From the NCBI GenBank assembly GCA_024683675.1, contig JAIKYB010000074.1, positions 680-64,679 of the forward strand: a DNA stretch of 64,000 nt, in the 5' to 3' direction. The notes below the pieces were generated by a model. That model did no database searches. It had not been told where the DNA came from and saw only the letters and a list, made by a program, of their open reading frames with translations. Made by a program: the position numbers and the translations under genes. This DNA is from Treponema sp. (GTDB lineage: Bacteria > Spirochaetota > Spirochaetia > Treponematales > Treponemataceae). Shown in pieces: positions 23,944 to 36,340 of this stretch (positions are counted from its first letter, which is position 1; each line of letters opens with the position of its first letter).

Positions 23944-25125
23944 ATGAAACTAATTAATGACTCCCATCAGAACGAGTATGAAGTAAAACCTGATATAGTT
24001 GCAAAAGCTCCCGGACGCTTTCATCTTATCGGAGAACATTCCTGGTTTTTTAAGGATAAAACACTTTCAATGGCAGTTAATATGCCTGTCTATGTTGCCG
24101 TTTCTAAGAGAGAAGATTCTTCACTTAGATTTTACTTTACTCAGCTTAATGAAAGAAAGAAATCTAGTCTTACAGCATTAAAATTCAAGAAAGAAGACCG
24201 TTGGGCAAATGCACTGAAATCAGTTATTTATGGATTCACTTCTGCAGGCTTTACCTTATCCGGAATGGATGTAACAATTTACAGTGATATTCTTCCTTCT
24301 GCAGGCTTTGGTATTACTACAGCTATGAAGGTTGCCGAAGCGGTTGCTGTAAAGGCTTTATTTGAGCTTAATATATCTGACATGGAATTGCTTCAGGTCT
24401 TAGAAAGAGGAAACCGACGCTTTTTACAGACTGAAAACTATTCGGCAGATAACTGTACTGCTTTATTTGCAAAAAAAGGAAATCTTTTTATAACCGATTA
24501 CTTCAAAAATAAGTGGGATTATGTTCCCTATACCTTTGAAGATAAAAAATTATTCCTTGTTGATACAAAGGTTCCTCGTATTTCTGTATGGAATGAAATG
24601 TCCCTTTACGAGCCTCAGAATGCATTGCTGCTTGGAGACTTAAGGGATCAGAAGCCTAATGTTTATGGCGGATGGAAATATATAGACAATGTTACAGACA
24701 TTAATGAAGAGCTTTCTGTTGTAAGTGAAGATGTTCACCGTAAGCTTACTGCTATAATCAGGGAGCATGGTGATGTACTTGAAGCAAGAGAAGGACTTGA
24801 AAAGGTGGATTTCTTTAAGTTTGCCCGTGCTGTAAATCATAGTCATGAAACAATGAGGGATATGTTTAATATTTCTTGTCCTGAAATTGACTGGATCTTA
24901 AAACGTGTAAATGAACTTGAACCAAATCTTGACTTTGTAAGAAATCCTGTAACCTGTGGAAGAATTACAGGAAAGGGCTTTGGTCGTTGTCTTTATGCCT
25001 TTATGCGACAGAGTGATGAAGAAAAGTTCATGGAAAAGATTGCTGAATTTGAAAAAATATTTGGCTTTCATCCTCTTGTTTATCCTGTTGAAACTGCAGA
25101 TGGTGCATGTATTGTGAGGGATTAG
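23944..25125 (+). CDS. Galactokinase-like GHMP kinase with altered motifs
   Basis: APGRFHLIGEH, LPSAGFG, SH..MRD.F.ISCPEID, GRITGKGFGRC. Confidence 0.75.
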   Translation: MKLINDSHQNEYEVKPDIVAKAPGRFHLIGEHSWFFKDKTLSMAVNMPVYVAVSKREDSSLRFYFTQLNERKKSSLTALKFKKEDRWANALKSVIYGFTSAGFTLSGMDVTIYSDILPSAGFGITTAMKVAEAVAVKALFELNISDMELLQVLERGNRRFLQTENYSADNCTALFAKKGNLFITDYFKNKWDYVPYTFEDKKLFLVDTKVPRISVWNEMSLYEPQNALLLGDLRDQKPNVYGGWKYIDNVTDINEELSVVSEDVHRKLTAIIREHGDVLEAREGLEKVDFFKFARAVNHSHETMRDMFNISCPEIDWILKRVNELEPNLDFVRNPVTCGRITGKGFGRCLYAFMRQSDEEKFMEKIAEFEKIFGFHPLVYPVETADGACIVRD

Positions 25126-25126
25126 A

Positions 25127-25888
25127 ATGAATGTTCTGATTGTGAACGATGATGGTATTGAAAGTGAAGGTCTTCGTATCCTGGCAGAAAGAGTTTCAAA
25201 GCATCATCAGGTATATGTTCTTGCGCCAGATTCAAATCGTTCAGCAACCTCTCATCATGTAGTAATGTTTCAGGATTTAGAGCTTAAGAAGTATAAAAAA
25301 AATTACTGGAGCACTTCTGGTATGCCTGCTGACTGTGCTTGTATAGGTATAAGAAGTGGGCTATTTGACGTAAAATTTGATGTTGTTCTTTCCGGCATAA
25401 ATTGCGGGGCTAATATTGGAACTGACATTATTTTTTCGGGAACCTGTGCAGGAGCCAGACAGGCGGTTTTGAATGGAATCCCGGGAATTGCAGTAAGCCT
25501 TGATCCTATAGATTGGAATAAGGCTCATAAAGAAGGCTTTAAATATGTAGCTCTTGCTGATTTTGTCGTTGCAAATCTTCAAGAACTTGCTTTACTTTCA
25601 TCAGAAAAATATCCGGGAACCTTTGTAAATATAAATGCAGCCTCAGAAGATTCCTATAAGGGAGTAAAGTTTGCCAATAATCTCTTAAAGAGACGCTATA
25701 ACGAAAATATAGAAATTTTGGAAAAAGAATCCGGAGTTTTTTCTCATTTTAAGCCTTCAAATTCAAATGAGGAATATAAGGGAGACACGGATTATTCAGC
25801 AGTGAGGGAAGGTTATATTGCTATAAGCTGCCTTTATGCGGAGCCGGTGGCTGCTCATGTAGTGGACGGTATTTCGTTTAAAGTGTAA
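25127..25888 (+). CDS. surE: 5'/3'-nucleotidase SurE
   Basis: NDDG, GMPADC, SGIN.GAN.G, SGT. Confidence 0.95.
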   Translation: MNVLIVNDDGIESEGLRILAERVSKHHQVYVLAPDSNRSATSHHVVMFQDLELKKYKKNYWSTSGMPADCACIGIRSGLFDVKFDVVLSGINCGANIGTDIIFSGTCAGARQAVLNGIPGIAVSLDPIDWNKAHKEGFKYVALADFVVANLQELALLSSEKYPGTFVNINAASEDSYKGVKFANNLLKRRYNENIEILEKESGVFSHFKPSNSNEEYKGDTDYSAVREGYIAISCLYAEPVAAHVVDGISFKV

Positions 25889-25916
25889 AATACTTACATA
25901 ATCTGGTGGTGGGAAA

Positions 25917-26603
25917 GTGGCAGATAATTCAGTTTTAAGAGAAGGTATTAAGTTTTATTCGGACGGAAAGTTTGAAAAGGCACTTGGATTTTTCCTGGCC
26001 TTGCCTGCAGACTGCGGGGCCGATGTAAATGAAATTGCCTACTATCTTGGTCTCTGTAATACAAAGCTAAAAAAATACGATGATGCTCTTTTGTACCTTG
26101 AGCAGGTAGTTACCTCTGGTGTAAATCTGGAAAAAACTTTGCAGTGCCGCTTTCTTCTTGCAGTTATTTATGTAGAAACAGGAAGAAAACGTCTTGCTGA
26201 TTTTGAATTGAACAAGCTCTTGGACACTGGTTATATGACAGCTTCTGTATACGCGGCTATAGCCTTTATTGCCTGGGAACAGGATGATTTGAACCGCTGT
26301 CTTGATTTTTATGAAAAATCCCTTGAAAAGGACCCTGATAATATTTCTTCACTTAATGGTCTGGGCTATGTTTTAGCATGTCAGGACAAGGATTTAACAA
26401 AGGCTCTTACACTTTGTAAGCAGGCAGTTAAGCTTTCTCCTAATTCGGCTGCCTGCCTGGATTCTCTGGGCTGGGTTTATTATAAAATGGGGCTTTATGA
26501 TGATTCTCTGCAGTATTTAAGACAGGCAGAGCAGATTGATACTTCAAGTGTAGAAATCGCCGACCACATACAATCTGTATTACAAAAAACGAGGCACTAC
26601 TAG
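25917..26603 (+). CDS. TPR protein
   Basis: Repeated TPR helices (LNGLGY, DSLGWVYYKMG). Confidence 0.85.
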   Translation: MADNSVLREGIKFYSDGKFEKALGFFLALPADCGADVNEIAYYLGLCNTKLKKYDDALLYLEQVVTSGVNLEKTLQCRFLLAVIYVETGRKRLADFELNKLLDTGYMTASVYAAIAFIAWEQDDLNRCLDFYEKSLEKDPDNISSLNGLGYVLACQDKDLTKALTLCKQAVKLSPNSAACLDSLGWVYYKMGLYDDSLQYLRQAEQIDTSSVEIADHIQSVLQKTRHY

Positions 26604-28670
26604 ATGAAAAAAGTTATTGCAACACTTTCCATAGCCTTAATGCTTTTCTCTTCGCTTTTTGCTCAAAATACAACAGATAATGCCGGTCTTAAAGTTCCTG
26701 AAGACAGAATCCGTACTGGAAATGAAGGTTTTGCTTCGGAAGAATTCCGACGTGGTGTACAAGCTTATTATAGATGTGCCTTCAATGACGCCATAGTTCA
26801 GTTTGAAAGAGCTCTTACTTATATGCCGGATGATAATTTGATTTTGGAATGGTTGGGTAAGGCTTATTATAAATCCGGACTGGAAGGTTCGGCATTAAGT
26901 TACTGGCAGACTGCCAGTGATAATGGTTATGGTGGACTTTTACTTGAAAATAAAATAGAAATTGTAAGGGAAAGACGTGTTACCGGAGATTCAACTGACA
27001 AGCTTCTGAGACTTTCCGAAGCCGGGGCCTTTCCTGGAGAATTTAATGGAAATCTGATTTTTAGTGGCCCTGTTTCTGTACTTACCAATTATGACGGAAC
27101 CATGTGGGTAGCAGCTTATAATTCTAATGAACTGCTTTTACTTAATCAGAATGGAATTGTAATTAACAGGGTTACGGGGCCTCTTAATGGCTTTGACCGC
27201 CCAAGTGATATAATCAGATTAAATGACGGAAATATTCTGGTAGCTGAACATGCCGGGGACAGACTTGCTCTGCTTTCTTCAAATGCCACTTTTATAAAAT
27301 ACATTGGTTCAAAGGGAAGGGGAAATGGCCAAATGGTTGGTCCTCTCTATCTGGCTCAGGATTATCTTGACCGAATCTATACCAGTGATTACGGAAACCG
27401 CCGTATAGATGTTTTTGATTCAGAAGGGGAGCCTCTGTTTTCTTTTGGGGGAAAGCAGGGAACTTTTCCTGGACTTAAAGGTCCAACAGGAATAATCATA
27501 ATTGATGAATCTGTATTTGTTGCAGATGATCAAACAGGTTGTATTTACGAATTTGACCGGGCTGGTAACTATATCAGGGAATTGGTAGAAGAGGGAACCT
27601 TTGTAAAACCAGAGGGAATGCGCTTATTAAATGGTTCAATTGTTATTTGCGATGCTAACCGTTTGCTTTCTGTAAATCAGGAAACCGGGGCTACCTTTGA
27701 ATATGCAAGAACAGGAAATGCCCCTTCAAGAATTACGGTTGCTCAGGCAGATGTGAACGGAAATGTTGTTGTTTCCGATTTTACTGCTAATGAAATCTAT
27801 ATGATGTCTAAGGTTCAGGAACTGGTAGGAGGATTTTTTGTTCAGATTGAACAGCTGGATGCTTCACAATTTCCTCAAATTACAGTTGAACTTAGGGTAG
27901 AAAACAGGCACAGACAGCCTGTGGTTGGCCTTCAGCAGGAAAATTTCTATCTTTCAGAAAAGCAACAGCCTGTTGTAAATCTAAAGCTGCTTGGTGCCGC
28001 TTCAAACAACACCGAAGCTGATATTACAATCGTTATAGACCGCTCTAAAACAAGTCTCTTATACAAAGCAGAAATGGAAGCTGCTGTAAAGGAAATTGTT
28101 GCTTCGATGAATGGAATGGGTGTGCTTAGAATTGTTTCTGCAGGTGCTGTTCCTGTAACAGAATATGTTGGCCGCCCAGATATGCTTGGTGATTTTTCAA
28201 TTGACGGCTTAAAGAATCCTGCGGCTGCGACTATTTCGGAAGATTTAGCCTTACGTCTTGCTTCAAATGACCTGGTAACTGCTGCAAAAAAACGCTCAAT
28301 AATTTTAATTAGCGCTGGCGGCAGCAATGACATTTCCTTTAATCAGTATAATCTTGCAGAGCTTACCGCCTATATGAATAATAACTCTATCGGCTGCTCT
28401 GTGATTCAGGTAAATCAAAATGCCCTTCCACAAGAGCTGGCCTACATTGTAGATAATACTGCCGGGGATGAATATTATGTTTATCGTCCTCAGGGCCTTG
28501 GAAATGTTGTAAAGGATATTATCGAAAATCCTCAGGGAATATATCAGTTATCCTTTACTTCTTCTCTGCAGAAAAATTACGGTTTAACTTATCTTCCTCT
28601 GGAAGCAGAGGTTTATCTTTTGAACCGAAGCGGACGTGACGAAACAGGTTATTTTGCCCCTCTTGAATAG
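26604..28670 (+). CDS. Exported TPR / NHL beta-propeller / vWA-like protein
   Basis: Signal peptide, TPR, NHL repeats (G.G.GQ..GP, IYTSDYGNRRI.VFD), IVIDRS vWA-like segment. Confidence 0.8.
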   Translation: MKKVIATLSIALMLFSSLFAQNTTDNAGLKVPEDRIRTGNEGFASEEFRRGVQAYYRCAFNDAIVQFERALTYMPDDNLILEWLGKAYYKSGLEGSALSYWQTASDNGYGGLLLENKIEIVRERRVTGDSTDKLLRLSEAGAFPGEFNGNLIFSGPVSVLTNYDGTMWVAAYNSNELLLLNQNGIVINRVTGPLNGFDRPSDIIRLNDGNILVAEHAGDRLALLSSNATFIKYIGSKGRGNGQMVGPLYLAQDYLDRIYTSDYGNRRIDVFDSEGEPLFSFGGKQGTFPGLKGPTGIIIIDESVFVADDQTGCIYEFDRAGNYIRELVEEGTFVKPEGMRLLNGSIVICDANRLLSVNQETGATFEYARTGNAPSRITVAQADVNGNVVVSDFTANEIYMMSKVQELVGGFFVQIEQLDASQFPQITVELRVENRHRQPVVGLQQENFYLSEKQQPVVNLKLLGAASNNTEADITIVIDRSKTSLLYKAEMEAAVKEIVASMNGMGVLRIVSAGAVPVTEYVGRPDMLGDFSIDGLKNPAAATISEDLALRLASNDLVTAAKKRSIILISAGGSNDISFNQYNLAELTAYMNNNSIGCSVIQVNQNALPQELAYIVDNTAGDEYYVYRPQGLGNVVKDIIENPQGIYQLSFTSSLQKNYGLTYLPLEAEVYLLNRSGRDETGYFAPLE

Positions 28671-31600
28671 TTAGAATTCTGCTTTAGCTCCAATACTTGC
28701 TGTCAAAGACAGATTATTACTTGTGCTGGAAGATGTAGATATTCTGGTGTAAGAGCAGCCTATTCCCGTGTTTATTGTAAAATATTTTAAGAAGTTTAAT
28801 TCCGCAGAATGTGTAAAGTCAAATTGCTGGTTAAAGGCCGAAGAGCTTTTGCTTATATCTATATTTAAAGAGTTTTTACGGATAATACCCGGATTTTTTT
28901 GAGTAAGTGAAGGAAATATAAGGCGGCCTATAAGATAAGAAAGGCAATCATTTGACGGTCTGGTATAAATAAAGGTTCCCCTTGTAAGCCAGCTTCCATC
29001 AGTTTCAAAGGATAATTCCAAAGCAGAGGTAAGATAAGCCTTGTCAGAAATATAAAGCAGGGCCTGTATATAATAGTCCAACTGAAAACTGATATTTTCC
29101 AGAAGGTCAGGAGGAAGTTTTACAATGGCATTTAAGCTTGAATAAATTTCATCCTGCTTAAACCATTTTAATAGATGAAGTCGTCCCTGACTTCCAAAAT
29201 TATTAAGTGCCATATTTGAAATTGTGGCCTTAAATTGATAGAGCTGACTTGTGCTGTCCTCTTTTTCTATATTTCTTGAAACAATAAGATTTGCGGCAGA
29301 TGGCACCCATAAATCATTTATAGAATTAAACAACTTTCTAGAATAAGAAGCCTGGTATTTAGAAGTGTAATCTGCTGTAATTTTTTCTGGCAAGTTCTTG
29401 TCAAAAAGATCATAAAAGGGGGCCTGTTGGTAGAACCAGCTTCTGTCTTTTTGCAGACTAAAGAATTCTTCTGTATCTGTAATATAAGAGCCCTGACTAG
29501 AATCATAAAGCTTATAGCCTTCCGCATTTCTTTCTAAATCTAAAGAGATTTTGTGAATTCCAAATGATAGAGGAAGAGAAAACTGCAGGCTGCTGGTGTC
29601 GGTAAAGGCTGTTTCTGAACTACTTGTATAGAGGGCTTCTAAATTATATTGTAAGGACGGATTTAGACTTATTCCTGAAGTTGCAAGAGGAAGCTTTGCA
29701 GACAGCTTATTATTCCATAGGCTCTTTCTTTTACTTGCATTTGCTGACCCACTTGTAAATTGCAGCGCGGATATATCTGCCCAGGAAATAAAGTAGTTTT
29801 CTATTTGAGAAAGACTTGTATCTTGCAAAGTTGTTAATTTTTCTTCAGTAGAGGCTTTGCTTTCAAAGGCAATTTCTGCTTTTTTTATTGGAATGTTTGT
29901 TGAAAGCTCCAGGTTAGCGGTCTGACGGGCATAATCCTGATTTTTTTGAGCGTTTGCATTTCCTTTTATCTTAAGAGGAAGTTTGATGGAAGAAAAATCT
30001 ATCTGAGCGGAATCTTCTTTGCTTAGGCTTTCATCTTCTGAATTATATCTGTAGTTTTCTTTAATGGAAAAAAGAGAGAAGAGTGGACTTTTTGATTCAA
30101 TTTTATGGCCTGCCTTGTAAAAATCCAGACCTTTTGCAGAAATATCTGTTTCCAGGGCAATATCTGCAATTGTTATACCTGCGGCTCCATCAGATTTTAC
30201 TGAAAGACCATTTTGATTGAAGCTTTGAAGGGAGCCTACTTTAATAAAGGCATCTTTTACAATTGCTTTTTCGCCAAATGTAACAAGCTCTCCGCTTTTA
30301 TATTCGCCCGCAAGATAATTTTGAGCTGAATAATTAATGTCATTGCCTGAATAAATAAGATTATCAAGATAAAAATCAGCTGAAGAATAAAATTTATCTC
30401 CACTTATAAGGTCAATCACAAGCTTTTGCCTGCTTGGTATTACGCTTTTGTCAATAAAAAGACTGTAATTTGCCTGATCCATTTCAATAGAATCTAAATA
30501 AAGTTTTTCATTAAGCAAATCTACACTAAGAGTATGATATAGAAGGCTGGAAGAAAGAAGGTCTGAGTAATCATTAATTGTAATTTTAAGGGCAAGGTCT
30601 CCGTCCTGATCTGCACTTATAGAATCGGCGTCAAGAATAAAAGTTAATGCTTCATCTTCACTTTGACTGCTACTTTCTTCACTCTGAATTTCTTTTATGG
30701 CAAAATTAAAATCAATTGATTTGTAAAGAGAAAAATCTGCTGCTGTAAAATAAGAAACTGCTGTAATTTTTGTGTCATTTAAATCCTGAGCTTCTTCTGT
30801 AGTGGACCAGGAGATTCTGGAAGAAAAATCCTTTGTACTTCTTGCAATGCTTGCAGTATTAACTGATATATTTTGATCCTGGCTGGTATATATTGCCTGA
30901 GTAACAGGTTCATAAGGCCCAATATAGATTTTTCCTTCTAAGTCACTGTTCCCGGTTATAATAAAACGGGCATCATAACGGGAAATTAATCTTGCTCTAT
31001 CTTTATCCGTCAGTTCAATTTTGACAAGCTGCCATTCCTTACTTGAAAAATCAAAATCATCAATTTCCCAATAAGGCAGATTGGGGTCTTCTCCATTTTT
31101 TTGATTTGAAGCTTGAACGCCAAGCTGAAGGTAAAGCTTACAATTAGAAGTATCCTCAAGCTCTGAAAGATCTGCCTGCAAGGCAAATTCAAGCTGGTCT
31201 GAATTTTTTAAAAGACTGCCTGCTTCAAGCTTTATATCTACTGCCGCCCATGGAATAAGGTCTGAAGATGAATCTATTTCTGAAAAATCCCAGTTCAGAG
31301 GGATTTTGTAACCTGTAATGTCCTGGTCACTAATTCCTGTAAAGGAATTTATGGTGCCGTTTCCTTCTTCTTCAAGCTCAAGAGGAAGGTTCTGGGGAAG
31401 AGCTTGAATCTCGTAACCTGAGGAAGATGTCAGATAATAGGTTTGAGCTTCTGTGTCAGCTTGGGCACATACTAAAAGCTGGTTCGTGGCGTTTGCCTTT
31501 TGTATAGCTGCAGCGGCCTTTTCTGTAAGAGTGAGCTTTTCGTCCTTGTATTCTATACCTGCAGAAAGGGCAGCAAAGCCCTGCTGTAAAGTTTCCATTG

Positions 31601-34433
31601 TGGCAATAGTTCCTGCAAAGGTCAGGGGGATTCGGCTGGTTACTGATATGTCCGTTATAAGGTTTGGGGTAATTGCAAAATTGTAGCCGATTCCCGCTGC
31701 TATAGCTCCGCTTGAAAAATCGCTGTCTTCTTCCTGCCAGAGAATTGTAATTATATCTGTATCAGAAATTGATGAAGTGATTTCTACGTTTCCGCTGCTT
31801 GGGTCGTAAGAGGCAGTTTCTAAATTACCATTTTTATAAACCTGAACAGTACCGGCTACAGCTTTTGTTCCAATAAATAGGCTTGAAAGGCTGGTGTATG
31901 AGCGAACTCTGAGCTGCAGGTCACACTCATAAGAAAGATTTAAATAAATTTCCGGAATACTTTCTGCAAAAGGATAGAAGGAATCCAAGTTTTGACTATC
32001 GCTTATTGTAGCGTAAAGCTTTTCTTCCTGAAAAAAATCTTCATAGGAAATAATATTTGAAGGGTCATATTCTATGGCAGTAAAACGACTGTTTGTTGCT
32101 TGGCTTGATTTGTAAATTACACTTAAATCGGCATCTGATATAAGCCCGCAGTCATAAAGATTTGCTCTCAGGTAAGGAGAAAAACCATAGGAATTTTGAA
32201 TAACCAGAGCCTTATCTCCGTCAATTTCTGATTCAAGAGAATAAGAATAATCAGAAAGCTGGTATTGTTTACTGGCCTGATTAAAAAGCTCCTGAATTTT
32301 ACCTGCAAAAGAGCTGGAATCTTCATAAGAACCTGTGGCACTTGTAATTGTGCTTACAGAAGAGGAGCTGGAAAAGGTTAAGAGAATTGTTGGTATACTG
32401 CCGTCTGTTTTTTTTCCACTTGCAGCTGCCTCTGAAAAAACAAGGGCGTTTTTATTTAAAATTATTGTATAATCGCTGGCAGAGGCTTTTTTGTAATGCT
32501 TTCCATTTTTGTCACTATAGGAGCCTGAACTGTCTTCAATGTAAACATTTTTAATATCGCTTAAAGCATCAAGAGCTTCTTCCGGGAAGGTAAAATAGCG
32601 GCCGTAAATGAAGTTTGAAATGTCAATTTTTGTGTCATTAACACTATTCATTCCGTAAAAAACAGCTGATTTTGAGCTTGTTACATCATAGCGAATCAGG
32701 GCATCAAAGGAATGTCTGTCATCAGGAGATTTAAAAGCTGCAGAAAGTCCCGGGGCTTGATTTTGACCTCCGCTCACACCAAAGCCAAAATAATTAGCCG
32801 AATATAAGCTGTCCATGGTAATATTACGGTTTGAAAGCTTTACAGAGCGGACAAAACCTTCTCCTTTGTATCCCATGGTTAAGGTATTGGTCTTAAAGGA
32901 ATCTGCAAAGGCTCCGTAAAAATACCAGTGATTATTCAGCATTATATCTGCAGAAAGTTCAACTTCCTGCTTAAAAACAGGGCTGTTTGCAGAAAGGGTA
33001 AGAGGAAGGTTTTTAGACCAGCTTGCAAGGGCGCCCCCCGTTACTTCTCCCTGCCAAAAGCCTGTTATTGTAAAATTTACATGATTAGAATCTGAAATGT
33101 CCCATTCGAATAGGGAGCCTGAATCTTCTTGTTCCGGAACTTCAAGAGTTTGGGGTAGAGTAGTACCGGCTCCACTTTTAGTCAGGCTTTCTTCTGCCCA
33201 AAGAATATTTTTGCTGTTAAAAAAACTTGCTCCCAGCAGTCCTGCCAGAAATAAAGCCTTTAAGGTTCTTGCCTTTTGAATCTTTATATCCGGATTCTTA
33301 ATTTTCATTTTTAAGATAGCCTGTTCCAGCTTTTGTTTTTTTTCTTCTTTCTTGTCTTCAAATAAAGCCTGCTGCTGGGGGCCTCTTTCTTTGCTTACAT
33401 TTTCAAAGCCAATACCCAGCAGTCTTATTCCCCGACCTTCACTATACTTTTTAGCCAGTAGTCTTTTTGCAATTTCATAAAGGCTGTCTATTGTTGAAAT
33501 AGGACTATCCTGGCTTTCCTGAACCGTAAAGGTTGAAAAATCGTTATAGCGCAGCTTTATCATTACTGTTTTCGAAATTGCTTTTTCTTTTAAGAGTCGA
33601 AACATAACCCCCTGAGCCATTTCTAAAAGCTGGGTTTCTGCAGTATAGGAATCTGTAATATCCTCTAAAAAGGTTCTTTCTGCACTTATAGAATGACTTT
33701 TTGCTTTTTTGTTAAAGGATTCCTTTTCTATTCCCCGAACTGCATCGTATAAAAAGCTTGCCATGTTTTTACCAAACATAAATTCAAGATTTTCATAAGG
33801 AAGATTATAAATGTCTCTTGTAGAAAATATTGCCTTTTTGTGTAATAGCTCCAGACTTTTGCTTCCCAGCCCCCAAACCTTGTCTAAAGGAAGATTCAGC
33901 ATAAAGCTTTCTTCTTCTCCGTGGCGAATCATATAAAAACCATCGGGCTTTGAAAGTCCAGATGCAATTTTAGCCAGGTATTTTGTTGGAGCAAGACCAA
34001 TAGAAACAGTAAGTCCGCTTTGCTCATAAACATCTTTTTTTAATTTACGGGCAGTTTCTTCCGGAGGACCAAAAAGCTTTTCTGTCCCTGTTAAATCAAC
34101 AAAGGCTTCATCAATAGACATTTGCTCAACATCAGGTGAATAGTTCTTAAAAATATTCATAATCTGATAGGAAAGCTCGGAATAACGCTTCATTCTGCCG
34201 TGAACAAATATTCCATTAGGACAAAGTCTGTAGGCCATAGAAGTTGGCATTGCAGAATGAACTCCATACTTTCTTGCTTCATAAGATGCTGTTGAGACGA
34301 CACTTCTTTTTTCGTCAGGCAAGCCCCCGACAATAAGAGGCTTACCTCTGTATTCCGGATGATCCAGCATTTCTACAGAGGCAAAAAAAGCGTCTAAGTC
34401 TACATGCAGGTACCAGTGTTTTAATTCACTCAT
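28671..34433 (-). CDS. dinB: DNA polymerase IV fused to a large exported/outer-membrane domain
   Basis: HVDLDAFFASVE, STASYEARKYGV.SAMP, SIDEAF, KIAS..KPDG, IRLLGIG in the first ~390 aa; then a hydrophobic segment and ~1500 aa ending in Phe. Confidence 0.85.
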   Translation of the reverse strand: MSELKHWYLHVDLDAFFASVEMLDHPEYRGKPLIVGGLPDEKRSVVSTASYEARKYGVHSAMPTSMAYRLCPNGIFVHGRMKRYSELSYQIMNIFKNYSPDVEQMSIDEAFVDLTGTEKLFGPPEETARKLKKDVYEQSGLTVSIGLAPTKYLAKIASGLSKPDGFYMIRHGEEESFMLNLPLDKVWGLGSKSLELLHKKAIFSTRDIYNLPYENLEFMFGKNMASFLYDAVRGIEKESFNKKAKSHSISAERTFLEDITDSYTAETQLLEMAQGVMFRLLKEKAISKTVMIKLRYNDFSTFTVQESQDSPISTIDSLYEIAKRLLAKKYSEGRGIRLLGIGFENVSKERGPQQQALFEDKKEEKKQKLEQAILKMKIKNPDIKIQKARTLKALFLAGLLGASFFNSKNILWAEESLTKSGAGTTLPQTLEVPEQEDSGSLFEWDISDSNHVNFTITGFWQGEVTGGALASWSKNLPLTLSANSPVFKQEVELSADIMLNNHWYFYGAFADSFKTNTLTMGYKGEGFVRSVKLSNRNITMDSLYSANYFGFGVSGGQNQAPGLSAAFKSPDDRHSFDALIRYDVTSSKSAVFYGMNSVNDTKIDISNFIYGRYFTFPEEALDALSDIKNVYIEDSSGSYSDKNGKHYKKASASDYTIILNKNALVFSEAAASGKKTDGSIPTILLTFSSSSSVSTITSATGSYEDSSSFAGKIQELFNQASKQYQLSDYSYSLESEIDGDKALVIQNSYGFSPYLRANLYDCGLISDADLSVIYKSSQATNSRFTAIEYDPSNIISYEDFFQEEKLYATISDSQNLDSFYPFAESIPEIYLNLSYECDLQLRVRSYTSLSSLFIGTKAVAGTVQVYKNGNLETASYDPSSGNVEITSSISDTDIITILWQEEDSDFSSGAIAAGIGYNFAITPNLITDISVTSRIPLTFAGTIATMETLQQGFAALSAGIEYKDEKLTLTEKAAAAIQKANATNQLLVCAQADTEAQTYYLTSSSGYEIQALPQNLPLELEEEGNGTINSFTGISDQDITGYKIPLNWDFSEIDSSSDLIPWAAVDIKLEAGSLLKNSDQLEFALQADLSELEDTSNCKLYLQLGVQASNQKNGEDPNLPYWEIDDFDFSSKEWQLVKIELTDKDRARLISRYDARFIITGNSDLEGKIYIGPYEPVTQAIYTSQDQNISVNTASIARSTKDFSSRISWSTTEEAQDLNDTKITAVSYFTAADFSLYKSIDFNFAIKEIQSEESSSQSEDEALTFILDADSISADQDGDLALKITINDYSDLLSSSLLYHTLSVDLLNEKLYLDSIEMDQANYSLFIDKSVIPSRQKLVIDLISGDKFYSSADFYLDNLIYSGNDINYSAQNYLAGEYKSGELVTFGEKAIVKDAFIKVGSLQSFNQNGLSVKSDGAAGITIADIALETDISAKGLDFYKAGHKIESKSPLFSLFSIKENYRYNSEDESLSKEDSAQIDFSSIKLPLKIKGNANAQKNQDYARQTANLELSTNIPIKKAEIAFESKASTEEKLTTLQDTSLSQIENYFISWADISALQFTSGSANASKRKSLWNNKLSAKLPLATSGISLNPSLQYNLEALYTSSSETAFTDTSSLQFSLPLSFGIHKISLDLERNAEGYKLYDSSQGSYITDTEEFFSLQKDRSWFYQQAPFYDLFDKNLPEKITADYTSKYQASYSRKLFNSINDLWVPSAANLIVSRNIEKEDSTSQLYQFKATISNMALNNFGSQGRLHLLKWFKQDEIYSSLNAIVKLPPDLLENISFQLDYYIQALLYISDKAYLTSALELSFETDGSWLTRGTFIYTRPSNDCLSYLIGRLIFPSLTQKNPGIIRKNSLNIDISKSSSAFNQQFDFTHSAELNFLKYFTINTGIGCSYTRISTSSSTSNNLSLTASIGAKAEF

Positions 34434-36340
34434 TCTTCAGCCTCCAGCTCAATTACTCTGGAAACCATGCAGTAGCTATTTTCTTTATCGCTCTTAAAAA
34501 ATCCAGTAACTGTAAGGGAAGAAGGCCTCTTATCCGTTCCATAAGTGAAGGTCAGTTCATGAGGAGGATTGGAAGGCAGCTTAAAGTAACCTGTAGTTGA
34601 AGAAACTGCTATGTAGTCGTTATCTGTATATAAAAGAGGAGAATGAGCAGAAGAATGAAGCCTTACATCACACTGAAGCAGTTCTCCTTCAATATTTATC
34701 TTTATAGTCCTAATAATGTCATCAAAAATCTGGTTATCTTCATAATCAACCTTAATTACTTGATTATTATTTGCTTTTTCAAAAATAATTTTTTCCTGAG
34801 GATTTGCTTTGTCTATTCTTTTTGCACCACTGGAAGCAATTATTGGAAGAAAAATAAGTAAAATTACAAAGAAAGAGGTATGGGCAATAAAGAAAGTAAG
34901 TTTTTTATTTGCATTTCTTGAAATTGAAGTGAGTATTCTAAAATAAATTAAGGCAAGAGGATAAAGGAGACATGCCATATAAAAAGGCATTGTATTACTT
35001 GTAAGAAGAAAAAGTCTTAATTCATTTATATTTGCATTAGATAATAATGAAGTTATATAAGGAATAAAGGTTAAAATCATCAAAAAGAAAATAGCTATAT
35101 GCAGGGCGTTCTTTTTAATAATAAAAGCCAGAATGGAAAGAAGACAAATAAATAAAAATATAGGGAAAAGAGAAACATCTACAAGAATAAAGAGGGATTG
35201 ATTTGCAAAGCAGGAAAAAATAAGCAGATAGTCAATGGATTTTTCTCCAAATTTTGTATTAAGAAGCAGGGTAATGGTGTAAAAGGCTGCGCAAATAAAA
35301 ATTGTTATTACGAACTGAAAGCAGAATAAATACATGATTTTTTTTGCTTCGCTTTCCGGATGTAAAAATAAATTAAAAAAGAGTCTTCCCATAAAAAAGG
35401 AAATTACAATCAGAAAATATGTAACGGGAATTGAATACCAGATGTGCTTTATGGCATGCCAGGTATTTCTTTTTTGCCTGATATTAACAAAAACTAAAAG
35501 AAAAATGAAAAATAACCAGATAAAGATAATCAAAATAATGATTTTTATAGTTGTACTTTCTCTAAGGCGGAAGTAATTATTAAAGGCCTTAATCATTAAA
35601 AAGTGATGGTCCCATTCTCTATTTGTAAGTTGAGAGAAAGCTGTCAGCATATATTGTATGGAATTGATTAAGTTTTCTTTTTTTACACTATTTGTAAAGC
35701 TTAGTTTTATACAGGGAACCTCTCTTTCTAAGAATATAGAAAGATTTCTGTCGTAGAAGAAATTATAGCTATAGAGCTGGCTTACATAATAATTTGGAAC
35801 TTCTTTTCCTAAGCCCGAATGTAAAAAAGCATTACAGGCCATTTGGGTCAGGTAGGAAGGGGTAATTATTTTTCTGCTTGAAGAAATGATTTTTGTATTA
35901 TTTGCTTCCAGGTCGCAGATTATTACCGTGTTATCATGGTTGGAATTAAGACTTTGCGCGTAAATTTCGCTTCCGTAAACCATGCCTTCTTTATGTATGA
36001 TTTGTCTTTCTCCATAGGCAAAAAGAAGCTTGATGTTGTAATTTATTTCTGATTTATTGATATAGGAAATCAACTCCTTTATTATGTCCATGTGCTTTTC
36101 TGCATCTTCCTGGAAAAAGACCAGACTTAAATCGGGAGCATTTTCTGTTTCTGAGTTAAAGCTTACTTTTATATTATAAGGGAAGGCGTTGAGTCCGTTT
36201 AGAATAAGGCTTTGTGCTTCTGGATTTACTTTTTCATTTTTTAGTTGAGTGAAAATGGAATCACAAAGACTTATCTGGCTATAGGCCTGAGCTATAAAAA
36301 GAAAAAATAGTAATGTAGTCAATGCTTTCCTGATTTTCAT
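34430..36340 (-). CDS. Polytopic membrane protein with an N-terminal exported domain
   Basis: Signal peptide, soluble domain, about 8 TM helices, C-terminal beta-rich domain; overlaps the dinB start by 4 nt. Confidence 0.75.
   Translation of the reverse strand: MKIRKALTTLLFFLFIAQAYSQISLCDSIFTQLKNEKVNPEAQSLILNGLNAFPYNIKVSFNSETENAPDLSLVFFQEDAEKHMDIIKELISYINKSEINYNIKLLFAYGERQIIHKEGMVYGSEIYAQSLNSNHDNTVIICDLEANNTKIISSSRKIITPSYLTQMACNAFLHSGLGKEVPNYYVSQLYSYNFFYDRNLSIFLEREVPCIKLSFTNSVKKENLINSIQYMLTAFSQLTNREWDHHFLMIKAFNNYFRLRESTTIKIIILIIFIWLFFIFLLVFVNIRQKRNTWHAIKHIWYSIPVTYFLIVISFFMGRLFFNLFLHPESEAKKIMYLFCFQFVITIFICAAFYTITLLLNTKFGEKSIDYLLIFSCFANQSLFILVDVSLFPIFLFICLLSILAFIIKKNALHIAIFFLMILTFIPYITSLLSNANINELRLFLLTSNTMPFYMACLLYPLALIYFRILTSISRNANKKLTFFIAHTSFFVILLIFLPIIASSGAKRIDKANPQEKIIFEKANNNQVIKVDYEDNQIFDDIIRTIKINIEGELLQCDVRLHSSAHSPLLYTDNDYIAVSSTTGYFKLPSNPPHELTFTYGTDKRPSSLTVTGFFKSDKENSYCMVSRVIELEAEE

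Follow-up and report, generated by a model that had tools for sequence, protein, structure and literature searches.

Polyproteins that signal peptidase divides at an internal signal peptide are, as far as is known, very rare in bacteria, and the classic case is FbcH of Bradyrhizobium japonicum, a cytochrome b/c1 polyprotein reportedly described by Thony-Meyer et al. in 1991. From this single gene two mature proteins arise; the signal peptide of the downstream protein is located in mid-chain and is reportedly cut by signal peptidase, and the two halves, of which the upstream one is a polytopic membrane protein in its own right, belong to the same membrane complex. The locus described here appears to follow the same plan but with very different partners. 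It lies in a stretch of 64,000 nucleotides from Treponema sp. (contig JAIKYB010000074.1, positions 680 to 64,679; this whole stretch is called the window and is numbered from its first letter), where positions 28671..34433 of the minus strand form a single open reading frame (ORF) of 1920 codons plus stop without any interruption. The ORF begins as a complete DNA polymerase IV (Pol IV, DinB), continues through a segment that has the features of a signal peptide and ends as a giant outer-membrane-like barrel; homologous fused ORFs of 1840-2083 aa are present in many species. Unlike in FbcH, the upstream half is a DNA polymerase, soluble and cytoplasmic, and nothing evident links its function to that of the barrel. 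We consider it probable that this is a natural polyprotein that is processed by the Sec system and signal peptidase, in other words an architecture of the internal-signal polyprotein type with an unprecedented pair of partners.

Two further systems offer partial parallels. In the flavivirus capsid-prM precursor, a cytoplasmic protein is followed by a short hydrophobic signal and a translocated protein, the internal signal sequence is cut by host signal peptidase, and this cut, on the far side of the membrane, leaves the viral capsid with the signal as a C-terminal anchor until a second cut occurs (PMC3437442, PMC7019998). This arrangement differs from the treponemal one in that it belongs to the eukaryotic endoplasmic reticulum and to a viral polyprotein, and in that the second protease is a known, viral enzyme, whereas none is known in Treponema. 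Escherichia coli UmuC (Pol V) provides an example of a Y-family polymerase that is spatially controlled by sequestration at the membrane (PMC4552617); UmuC, in contrast, is not covalently linked to an exported protein, and for the treponemal DinB it may serve as a conceptual precedent only. Our literature searches returned nothing on fusions of DinB to a membrane protein or to a barrel, nor on SprA-like proteins in spirochetes. Public annotation names the fused proteins of 1700-2000 aa 'DNA polymerase IV' and leaves the barrel unrecognised, and we know of no characterised Y-family polymerase in which DinB, signal peptide and barrel are combined. If the protein is made and cut as proposed below, it would imply that the Sec system and signal peptidase I can handle a signal behind about 390 folded residues and that a Pol IV is born at the membrane with a hydrophobic tail, and the annotation of these proteins would need correction.

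An earlier note on this DNA, written from the letters alone, had reported the 1920-codon frame and a DinB of about 390 residues with intact catalytic motifs, and family models and structure comparison bear this out. Residues 1-392 constitute a complete Pol IV, with PF00817 (IMS) at residues 11-158 (178 bits, cut-off 23.2), PF11799 (IMS_C) at residues 247-356 (83.6 bits, cut-off 20.7) and a score of 341 bits against a cut-off of 256 for the NCBIfam Pol IV equivalog PRK02406/NF002677; several long-form NCBIfam models of Pol IV extend as far as residue 392. The closest solved structure is a Pol IV (7yll_A, E 4e-79), to which the motifs HVDLDAFF and SIDEAF align. The core and little finger (residues 1-352, positions 33378..34433, minus strand like all parts of the ORF) contain the catalytic residues D12/D14 in HVDLDAFF and D108/E109 in SIDEAF and are followed by QQALF (residues 354-358, 33360..33374), in which we take the pattern Q..LF to be a beta-clamp-binding motif because it recalls motifs of the QL[SD]LF type; Q..LF is invariant in the fused and unfused DinBs of the genus. 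A Lys-rich C-terminal tail (residues 359-392, 33258..33359) ends with KARTLK and would double as the n-region of the signal peptide. In comparison with E. coli DinB (PDB 4ir1) and the Pol IV in 7yll, the full-length match comprises palm, fingers, thumb and little finger, and the catalytic acids, the steric-gate aromatics and the clamp-type motif are alike, but the treponemal chain has no stop after the tail and runs on into a signal peptide and an envelope protein of 1500 aa.

The DinB half is also the better conserved one. Among 40 fused proteins, three of which lack the first residues including D12, the residues D12, D14, F16, F17, Y51, R54, D108 and E109 as well as Q..LF are constant wherever the residue is present. 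In pairwise comparison the DinB parts of these proteins share 64% identity on average and their barrel parts 34%; among unfused DinBs the mean is 59%. This pattern of conservation indicates that the fused DinB is kept functional under selection. Each sampled genome has exactly one ortholog of the window's DinB, either fused or stand-alone (390-476 aa); the fused DinB is therefore the Pol IV of the cell and not an extra copy. The start at 34433 is preceded by GGAGG 7 nt upstream and is the true start of the frame. Two more Y-family genes occur in the genome of the window, one for a UmuC-like protein of 418 aa with DUF4113 (contig C34, L014:972-2228) and one of 462 aa that adjoins a GGDEF gene (contig C73, L015:625-2013).

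For the remaining 1500 or so residues, the earlier note had proposed an outer-membrane-like protein that ends with a phenylalanine of the type recognized by the beta-barrel assembly machinery (BAM). Residues 376-1920 do not match any Pfam or NCBIfam family, and searching the PDB sequences with a profile did not return a match at E 10. The core was modelled by AlphaFold on residues 409-1517 of the homolog P0025, a segment of 1109 aa that shares 38% identity with the window's protein, using an alignment of 40 rows, and the model, which has a predicted local distance difference test score (pLDDT) of 84.9 and a predicted template modelling score (pTM) of 0.71, is antiparallel with an estimated 38 or so long strands and one inserted mixed domain. 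Transferred to the window's protein, it suggests an N-terminal part of the mature barrel with the first strands and an inserted mixed alpha/beta domain (residues 414-982, 31488..33194) and a C-terminal part with about 30 consecutive long strands (residues 1368-1920, 28674..30332), which ends with SIGAKAEF. Of 191 fused homologs, 173 end with Phe and 6 with Tyr. Taken together, model and terminus are consistent with the proposal and point to a closed outer-membrane barrel with a BAM-type C-terminal signal.

When the modelled core was compared with known structures, all top matches were outer-membrane barrels. Foldseek ranked SprA first (8gl6_A with E 6e-14, 6h3i_A with 8e-13, ranging to 2e-12; TM 0.48 by query), followed by MtrB and LptD at 1e-5 to 1e-4. 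With VIA-align, SprA 8gl6_A gave a Z of 19.8 over 899 of 1109 residues at a root mean square deviation (rmsd) of 7.2 A and 12% identity, and 6h3i_A a Z of 19.5 over 834 aligned residues, compared with about 270-420 aligned residues for ordinary barrels and about 270-300 at an rmsd of 10-15 A for ordinary porins. A structure search of the ESM-Atlas yielded generic barrels only (TM <0.45); its feature neighbours include clusters in which 12% of the members have SprA_N. SprA (Sov), the 36-strand protein of the type IX secretion system (T9SS) of Flavobacterium johnsoniae (6H3I, 8GL6, 8GL8), thus shares the giant-barrel fold and gives the longest alignment by a wide margin, but it has about 2400 residues as compared with about 1100-1500 in the treponemal proteins, and it belongs to a system described for Bacteroidota (PMC10994853), whereas the treponemal proteins have a spirochete as host.

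The resemblance to SprA/Sov-type translocons, which the earlier note had suggested on the basis of a few segments, is accordingly one of fold; membership in the SprA sequence family or in a T9SS is not supported. SprA_N (PF14349) and the NCBIfam model surface_SprA did not match the window's protein at E 0.1, and SprA_N matched neither any of 36 family members at E 10 nor any protein in the window's genome, where the controls were silent as well. GldM_1st gave sub-threshold noise only in the window's genome and four near-complete genomes, PorV was not found in the five genomes searched, and Por_Secre_tail (the type-A C-terminal domain, CTD) reached 14-16 bits in the window's genome, below the cut-off, each time without a T9SS-positive control, so that these searches for GldM/PorM, PorV and the type-A CTD do not show that T9SS is absent. 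Judged by the model, the protein would represent a SprA-like giant barrel family of spirochetes rather than an established T9SS component, a new family without a Pfam entry, and is probably a large pore or translocon. Finding the SprA fold without detected T9SS partners among those searched suggests that giant pores of the SprA type have a wider distribution than the T9SS.

Between the two barrel parts, the window's protein has an optional insert of 385 aa (residues 983-1367, 30333..31487) with two beta-sandwich domains of the jelly-roll or CBM-like type, which is absent from the homologs P0025 and P0040 and shortened in others such as that of Treponema bryantii, whose protein has 1697 aa in total. 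The insert was modelled on the window's own sequence (421 aa, pLDDT 89.7), and the model matches SprA as well, together with reelin repeats and tandem CBM22 domains (Foldseek E of about 1e-6 to 1e-5, low TM). It may be a surface-exposed binding module.

The point at which polymerase and barrel meet has a simple order. QQALF (354-358) and the tail ending with KARTLK (387-392) are followed by a hydrophobic core or h-region of 13 aa, ALFLAGLLGASFF (residues 393-405, 33219..33257), and by a polar c-region, NSKNILWA (residues 406-413, 33195..33218), after which comes EE, so that the predicted signal peptidase I site is A413/E414. The features of a Sec signal peptide, i.e., a basic n-region, a core of about 7-15 aa, a polar c-region and small residues at -3/-1, are all present at the junction, as the earlier note had surmised when it called the segment basic and hydrophobic with a possible signal peptidase I site; its position departs from the typical N-terminal location, for it starts at residue 387. 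In the 40 fused proteins, basic residues precede a core of 9-19 aa (median 13); next come 5-8 polar residues, which in nearly all cases end with A/S ahead of Q/E. Such a core length is usual in signal peptides, whereas a stable membrane anchor would generally be longer. In position, the core corresponds to the N-terminal signal peptide of stand-alone barrel orthologs, which have a matching pattern (ASA/Q, LWA/QQ and IFA/QQ, the slash marking the cut). Stand-alone DinBs of the genus, for their part, end with KAR[TML]L plus 0-30 residues, usually fewer than ten, and their tail is alike in fused and unfused species; it follows that the fusion links the natural end of DinB directly to the signal-peptide core of the barrel.

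The fusion is not peculiar to this genome, which belongs to a large Treponema genus of gut and rumen that includes T. bryantii. Of the 120 species sampled from this genus, 73 have the barrel, and every complete match is an open frame of 1840-2083 aa; the exceptions are G129, G131 and G056, where the match runs into a contig end, G064 and G005, where it is interrupted, and G087, which has a separate, convergent barrel gene. All 40 clusters retrieved in a search with the barrel part alone (28-56% identity) bear DinB domains, and a search for long DinBs led to about 450 protein clusters with barrel identities down to 28%, two of them from cultured T. bryantii. On the finished 3.43-Mb chromosome of the latter (AP025286.1), the fused gene encodes the protein of 1697 aa and is embedded in the same order of genes as in the window, i.e., an upstream gene for 645 aa, the fused gene, and convergent genes for NHL/TPR, TPR, SurE and GalK. 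Recurrence in independent treponeme genomes, which the earlier note had suggested as a check, is thus evident, and since T. bryantii is cultured and its genome finished, the reading proposed here is directly testable. Searching 1.84 billion representatives with a profile of the N-terminal half gave 514 representatives of the barrel family at 50% identity, and among the 150 matches listed there were 132 further sequences, 56 of them fused and 57 stand-alone. The barrel of other families in the order is a stand-alone protein of 1585-1692 aa that begins with an ordinary signal peptide.

Each half is also found by itself at the locus. Stand-alone DinBs occupy the same place, directly before the convergent gene for 690 aa (G086 and others). 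Conversely, on a 312-kb scaffold in ENA (L053:3953-10689), a barrel of 1562 aa with its own start and without DinB directly follows the homolog of the upstream gene in a syntenic setting (LigA ... DUF8084 / upstream gene / ... NHL, TPR, SurE, GalK); this locus is the mirror image of the species that keep DinB and have lost the barrel. In two independent assemblies (G087:C173, locus L017, and L052), dinB and the barrel gene are separate and convergent with their ends a few bases apart, and this barrel has its own Met and signal peptide. A maximum likelihood tree of DinB was calculated for 70 rows by a quick search with support values from the Shimodaira-Hasegawa-like approximate likelihood ratio test (SH-aLRT). 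The unfused DinB of G086, 82% identical, falls within a fully supported clade that also holds the window's protein plus five more fused ones; other unfused DinBs are likewise nested in fused clades, one clade of 18 is wholly unfused, and at least six changes between the fused and the unfused state lie on well-supported branches. The tree suggests that DinB and barrel fused once, long ago, and that the barrel was afterwards lost repeatedly, mostly by deletion of its part of the gene; this would be the simplest history because the junction is the same everywhere.

To sum up, a single ORF holds the downstream protein's signal peptide in mid-chain, both halves are conserved, and in relatives each half also occurs as a separate protein. 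If the polyprotein reading applies, translation would start at the dinB ATG at 34433 with its strong GGAGG and proceed through all 1920 codons. On emerging, KARTLK-ALFLAGLLGASFF-NSKNILWA would act as an internal Sec signal, with the basic tail of DinB remaining in the cytoplasm while the rest of the chain is threaded through SecYEG, and signal peptidase I would cut after A413. The product of about 1500 aa would then cross the periplasm and be inserted by BAM via its C-terminal AKAEF as a SprA-like outer-membrane barrel, while DinB (about 413 aa), on the cytoplasmic face, would keep the spent signal peptide as a short tail at its C-terminus. As this tail is too short for a stable anchor, DinB would probably be released or trimmed and then act as an ordinary Pol IV. 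Stable tethering of DinB to the inner membrane after cleavage, as the earlier note had envisaged, is doubtful because the core has the length of a signal peptide rather than of an anchor. The fusion would be retained since both halves stay functional after cleavage, and the loss of the barrel with DinB kept, together with the occurrence of each half alone at the locus, fits a fusion that is tolerated because cleavage restores two proteins. An obligatory functional coupling of the halves fits the pattern of losses less well. Of the two readings in the earlier note, a polyprotein or two genes joined by loss of a stop codon, the former fits best. Several points weigh against it. An internal signal behind about 390 folded residues is unusual for a bacterial Sec substrate and may be handled inefficiently; the cleavage site was placed by the -3/-1 pattern and by homology with the signal peptides of stand-alone barrels; the barrel model is that of a 38%-identical homolog without the insert and not of the window's own protein; and an internal promoter or non-canonical start codons within the ORF (ATT, ATA, CTG) are compatible with the sequence, too.

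The polyprotein could, in addition, serve as a regulatory device for spatial control, a possibility that we consider unlikely. The fusion would deliver Pol IV to the membrane, where the polymerase, born at the Sec translocon, would be held by the spent signal peptide until an intramembrane or signal-peptide protease frees it, so that mutagenesis would be gated by envelope biogenesis or envelope stress and pore and polymerase would be made in a strict ratio of 1:1. It would mean that a cytoplasmic DNA enzyme and an outer-membrane translocon are produced as a processed polyprotein with linked control. The membrane-sequestered Y-family polymerase UmuC of E. coli is a precedent (PMC4552617, PMC6375631), the fusion has been retained in most species of a large genus, and the clamp motif is kept just ahead of the signal. 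What speaks against this idea is the history of the locus, in which the barrel has been lost at least five times with DinB retained and one lineage has the barrel without DinB at this place. Moreover, the DinB tail is identical in type between fused and unfused species, and no feature special to fused DinBs was found.

A second alternative, which we regard as improbable, is that the fusion is a stop-loss accident, that the barrel is chiefly the product of an internal start and carries a signal peptide of its own, and that the full chain is a minor or useless product. Stand-alone barrels with their own start do exist, and the window itself has an in-frame ATG (33306-33308, M376), 17 codons ahead of the hydrophobic core. 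The earlier note had credited this ATG at 33308 (codon 376) with a weak Shine-Dalgarno sequence; the codon is indeed there but neither GGAG nor GAGG is found 5-12 nt upstream of it, and M376 is not conserved. A Met immediately after KAR is present in 28 of 186 fused proteins, but the residue in this position is part of DinB, since unfused DinBs also end with KAR[TML]L, and we therefore rejected it as a vestigial start of the barrel. In those loci for which the DNA was read, KAR is followed by ACC, ACG, ACT, CTC or ATG. In 122 of the 186 fused proteins, there is no Met at all within -30 to +12 residues of the junction, and at three of five related fused loci (L002, L004 and L005) the ten codons before the core and the first core codons are free of ATG, GTG and TTG. 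With neither a conserved Met nor a conserved start codon near the junction, internal initiation is no conserved route to the barrel. A useless read-through product of 190 kDa would furthermore be expected to regain a stop codon over a divergence that extends down to 28% identity.

It is less probable still that the fusion remains uncleaved as a bitopic protein with a permanent anchor, DinB inside the cell and the C-terminal part attached on the periplasmic side. Bacterial single-pass proteins with the N-terminus inside, the C-terminus in the periplasm and a large cytoplasmic domain are generally known to be common, and the positive charges of KARTLK ahead of the core suit such a topology. The core, however, comprises just 9-19 aa, the cleavage pattern of A/S followed by Q/E is conserved, and the C-terminal part is predicted to be a closed barrel with a terminal Phe, a typical BAM substrate. 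In addition, several homologs, among them that of T. bryantii as well as P0016 and P0039, have their first conserved barrel motif no more than about 5-10 residues after the predicted cut, which is too short to span the periplasm; an uncleaved chain could therefore not reach the outer membrane, and cleavage is needed for geometrical reasons.

The earlier note had also advised inspecting reads across 33200-33320. Logan contigs from four gut-metagenome runs, all of one study that is possibly the source of the genome, cover positions 32755-33566 without an indel, and no stop interrupts the frame where they cross the junction; two strain variants among them differ by 6-9 substitutions, which alter four and two residues, respectively, and leave the frame open. 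A missed stop or indel in this metagenome-assembled genome is thus extremely improbable, for even though the genome is a draft of 246 contigs and 80% completeness, a run of eight A residues (A8) lies just upstream of the junction and a relative, G064, is frameshifted within the equivalent run, the open frame is shared not only by the contigs from the four runs but by hundreds of independent assemblies and a finished isolate chromosome.

The A8 homopolymer in question (33336..33343) is formed by the KK codons of the DinB tail. In G064 (L016:5540-5730), the frameshift divides the gene into frames of 377 and 1658 aa and is probably an assembly error or a lesion of that strain, or possibly marks a hot spot for slippage; the window has its A8 run at the same place. 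The copy in G005 is interrupted by stop codons and also includes, in the stretch that was read, a short series of undetermined bases. Programmed slippage at A8 as a way to produce stand-alone DinB was considered and set aside as unsupported: runs of at least seven A occur in 7 of 9 fused and 12 of 25 unfused dinB tails and are not enriched in fused genes. They are explained by AAA as a codon for Lys.

Immediately upstream of dinB, on the same strand, lies a gene (34430..36340) for a protein of 636 aa with its own signal peptide (MKIRKALTTLLFFLFIAQAYS followed by Q), a hydrophobic middle and no Pfam family. Its stop codon overlaps the dinB start (ATGA), and the two genes are in all likelihood translationally coupled. 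Of 121 genomes of the genus, 108 have a homolog directly 5' of dinB, irrespective of whether dinB is fused or unfused; dinB thus belongs to an operon for envelope proteins even where the barrel is missing, and a role of the 636-aa protein as a barrel-specific partner was rejected for the same reason.

In G019, a member of another family of the order, stand-alone dinB and barrel genes are located on the same strand about 2.2 kb apart with opposite-strand ORFs between them (L018). According to this arrangement, dinB and the barrel gene may have been linked before they fused. A comparison of the stand-alone locus of G029 with that of T. bryantii revealed no similarity between the neighbouring proteins of 386 and 387 aa. 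On the other side of the fused gene, the window carries a convergent block on the plus strand (23944-28670) that encodes a GalK-like protein of 393 aa, a SurE-like protein of 253 aa, a TPR protein of 228 aa and a TPR/NHL protein of 688 aa. The order of the GalK/SurE/TPR/NHL block is identical in T. bryantii and in species that do not have the barrel.

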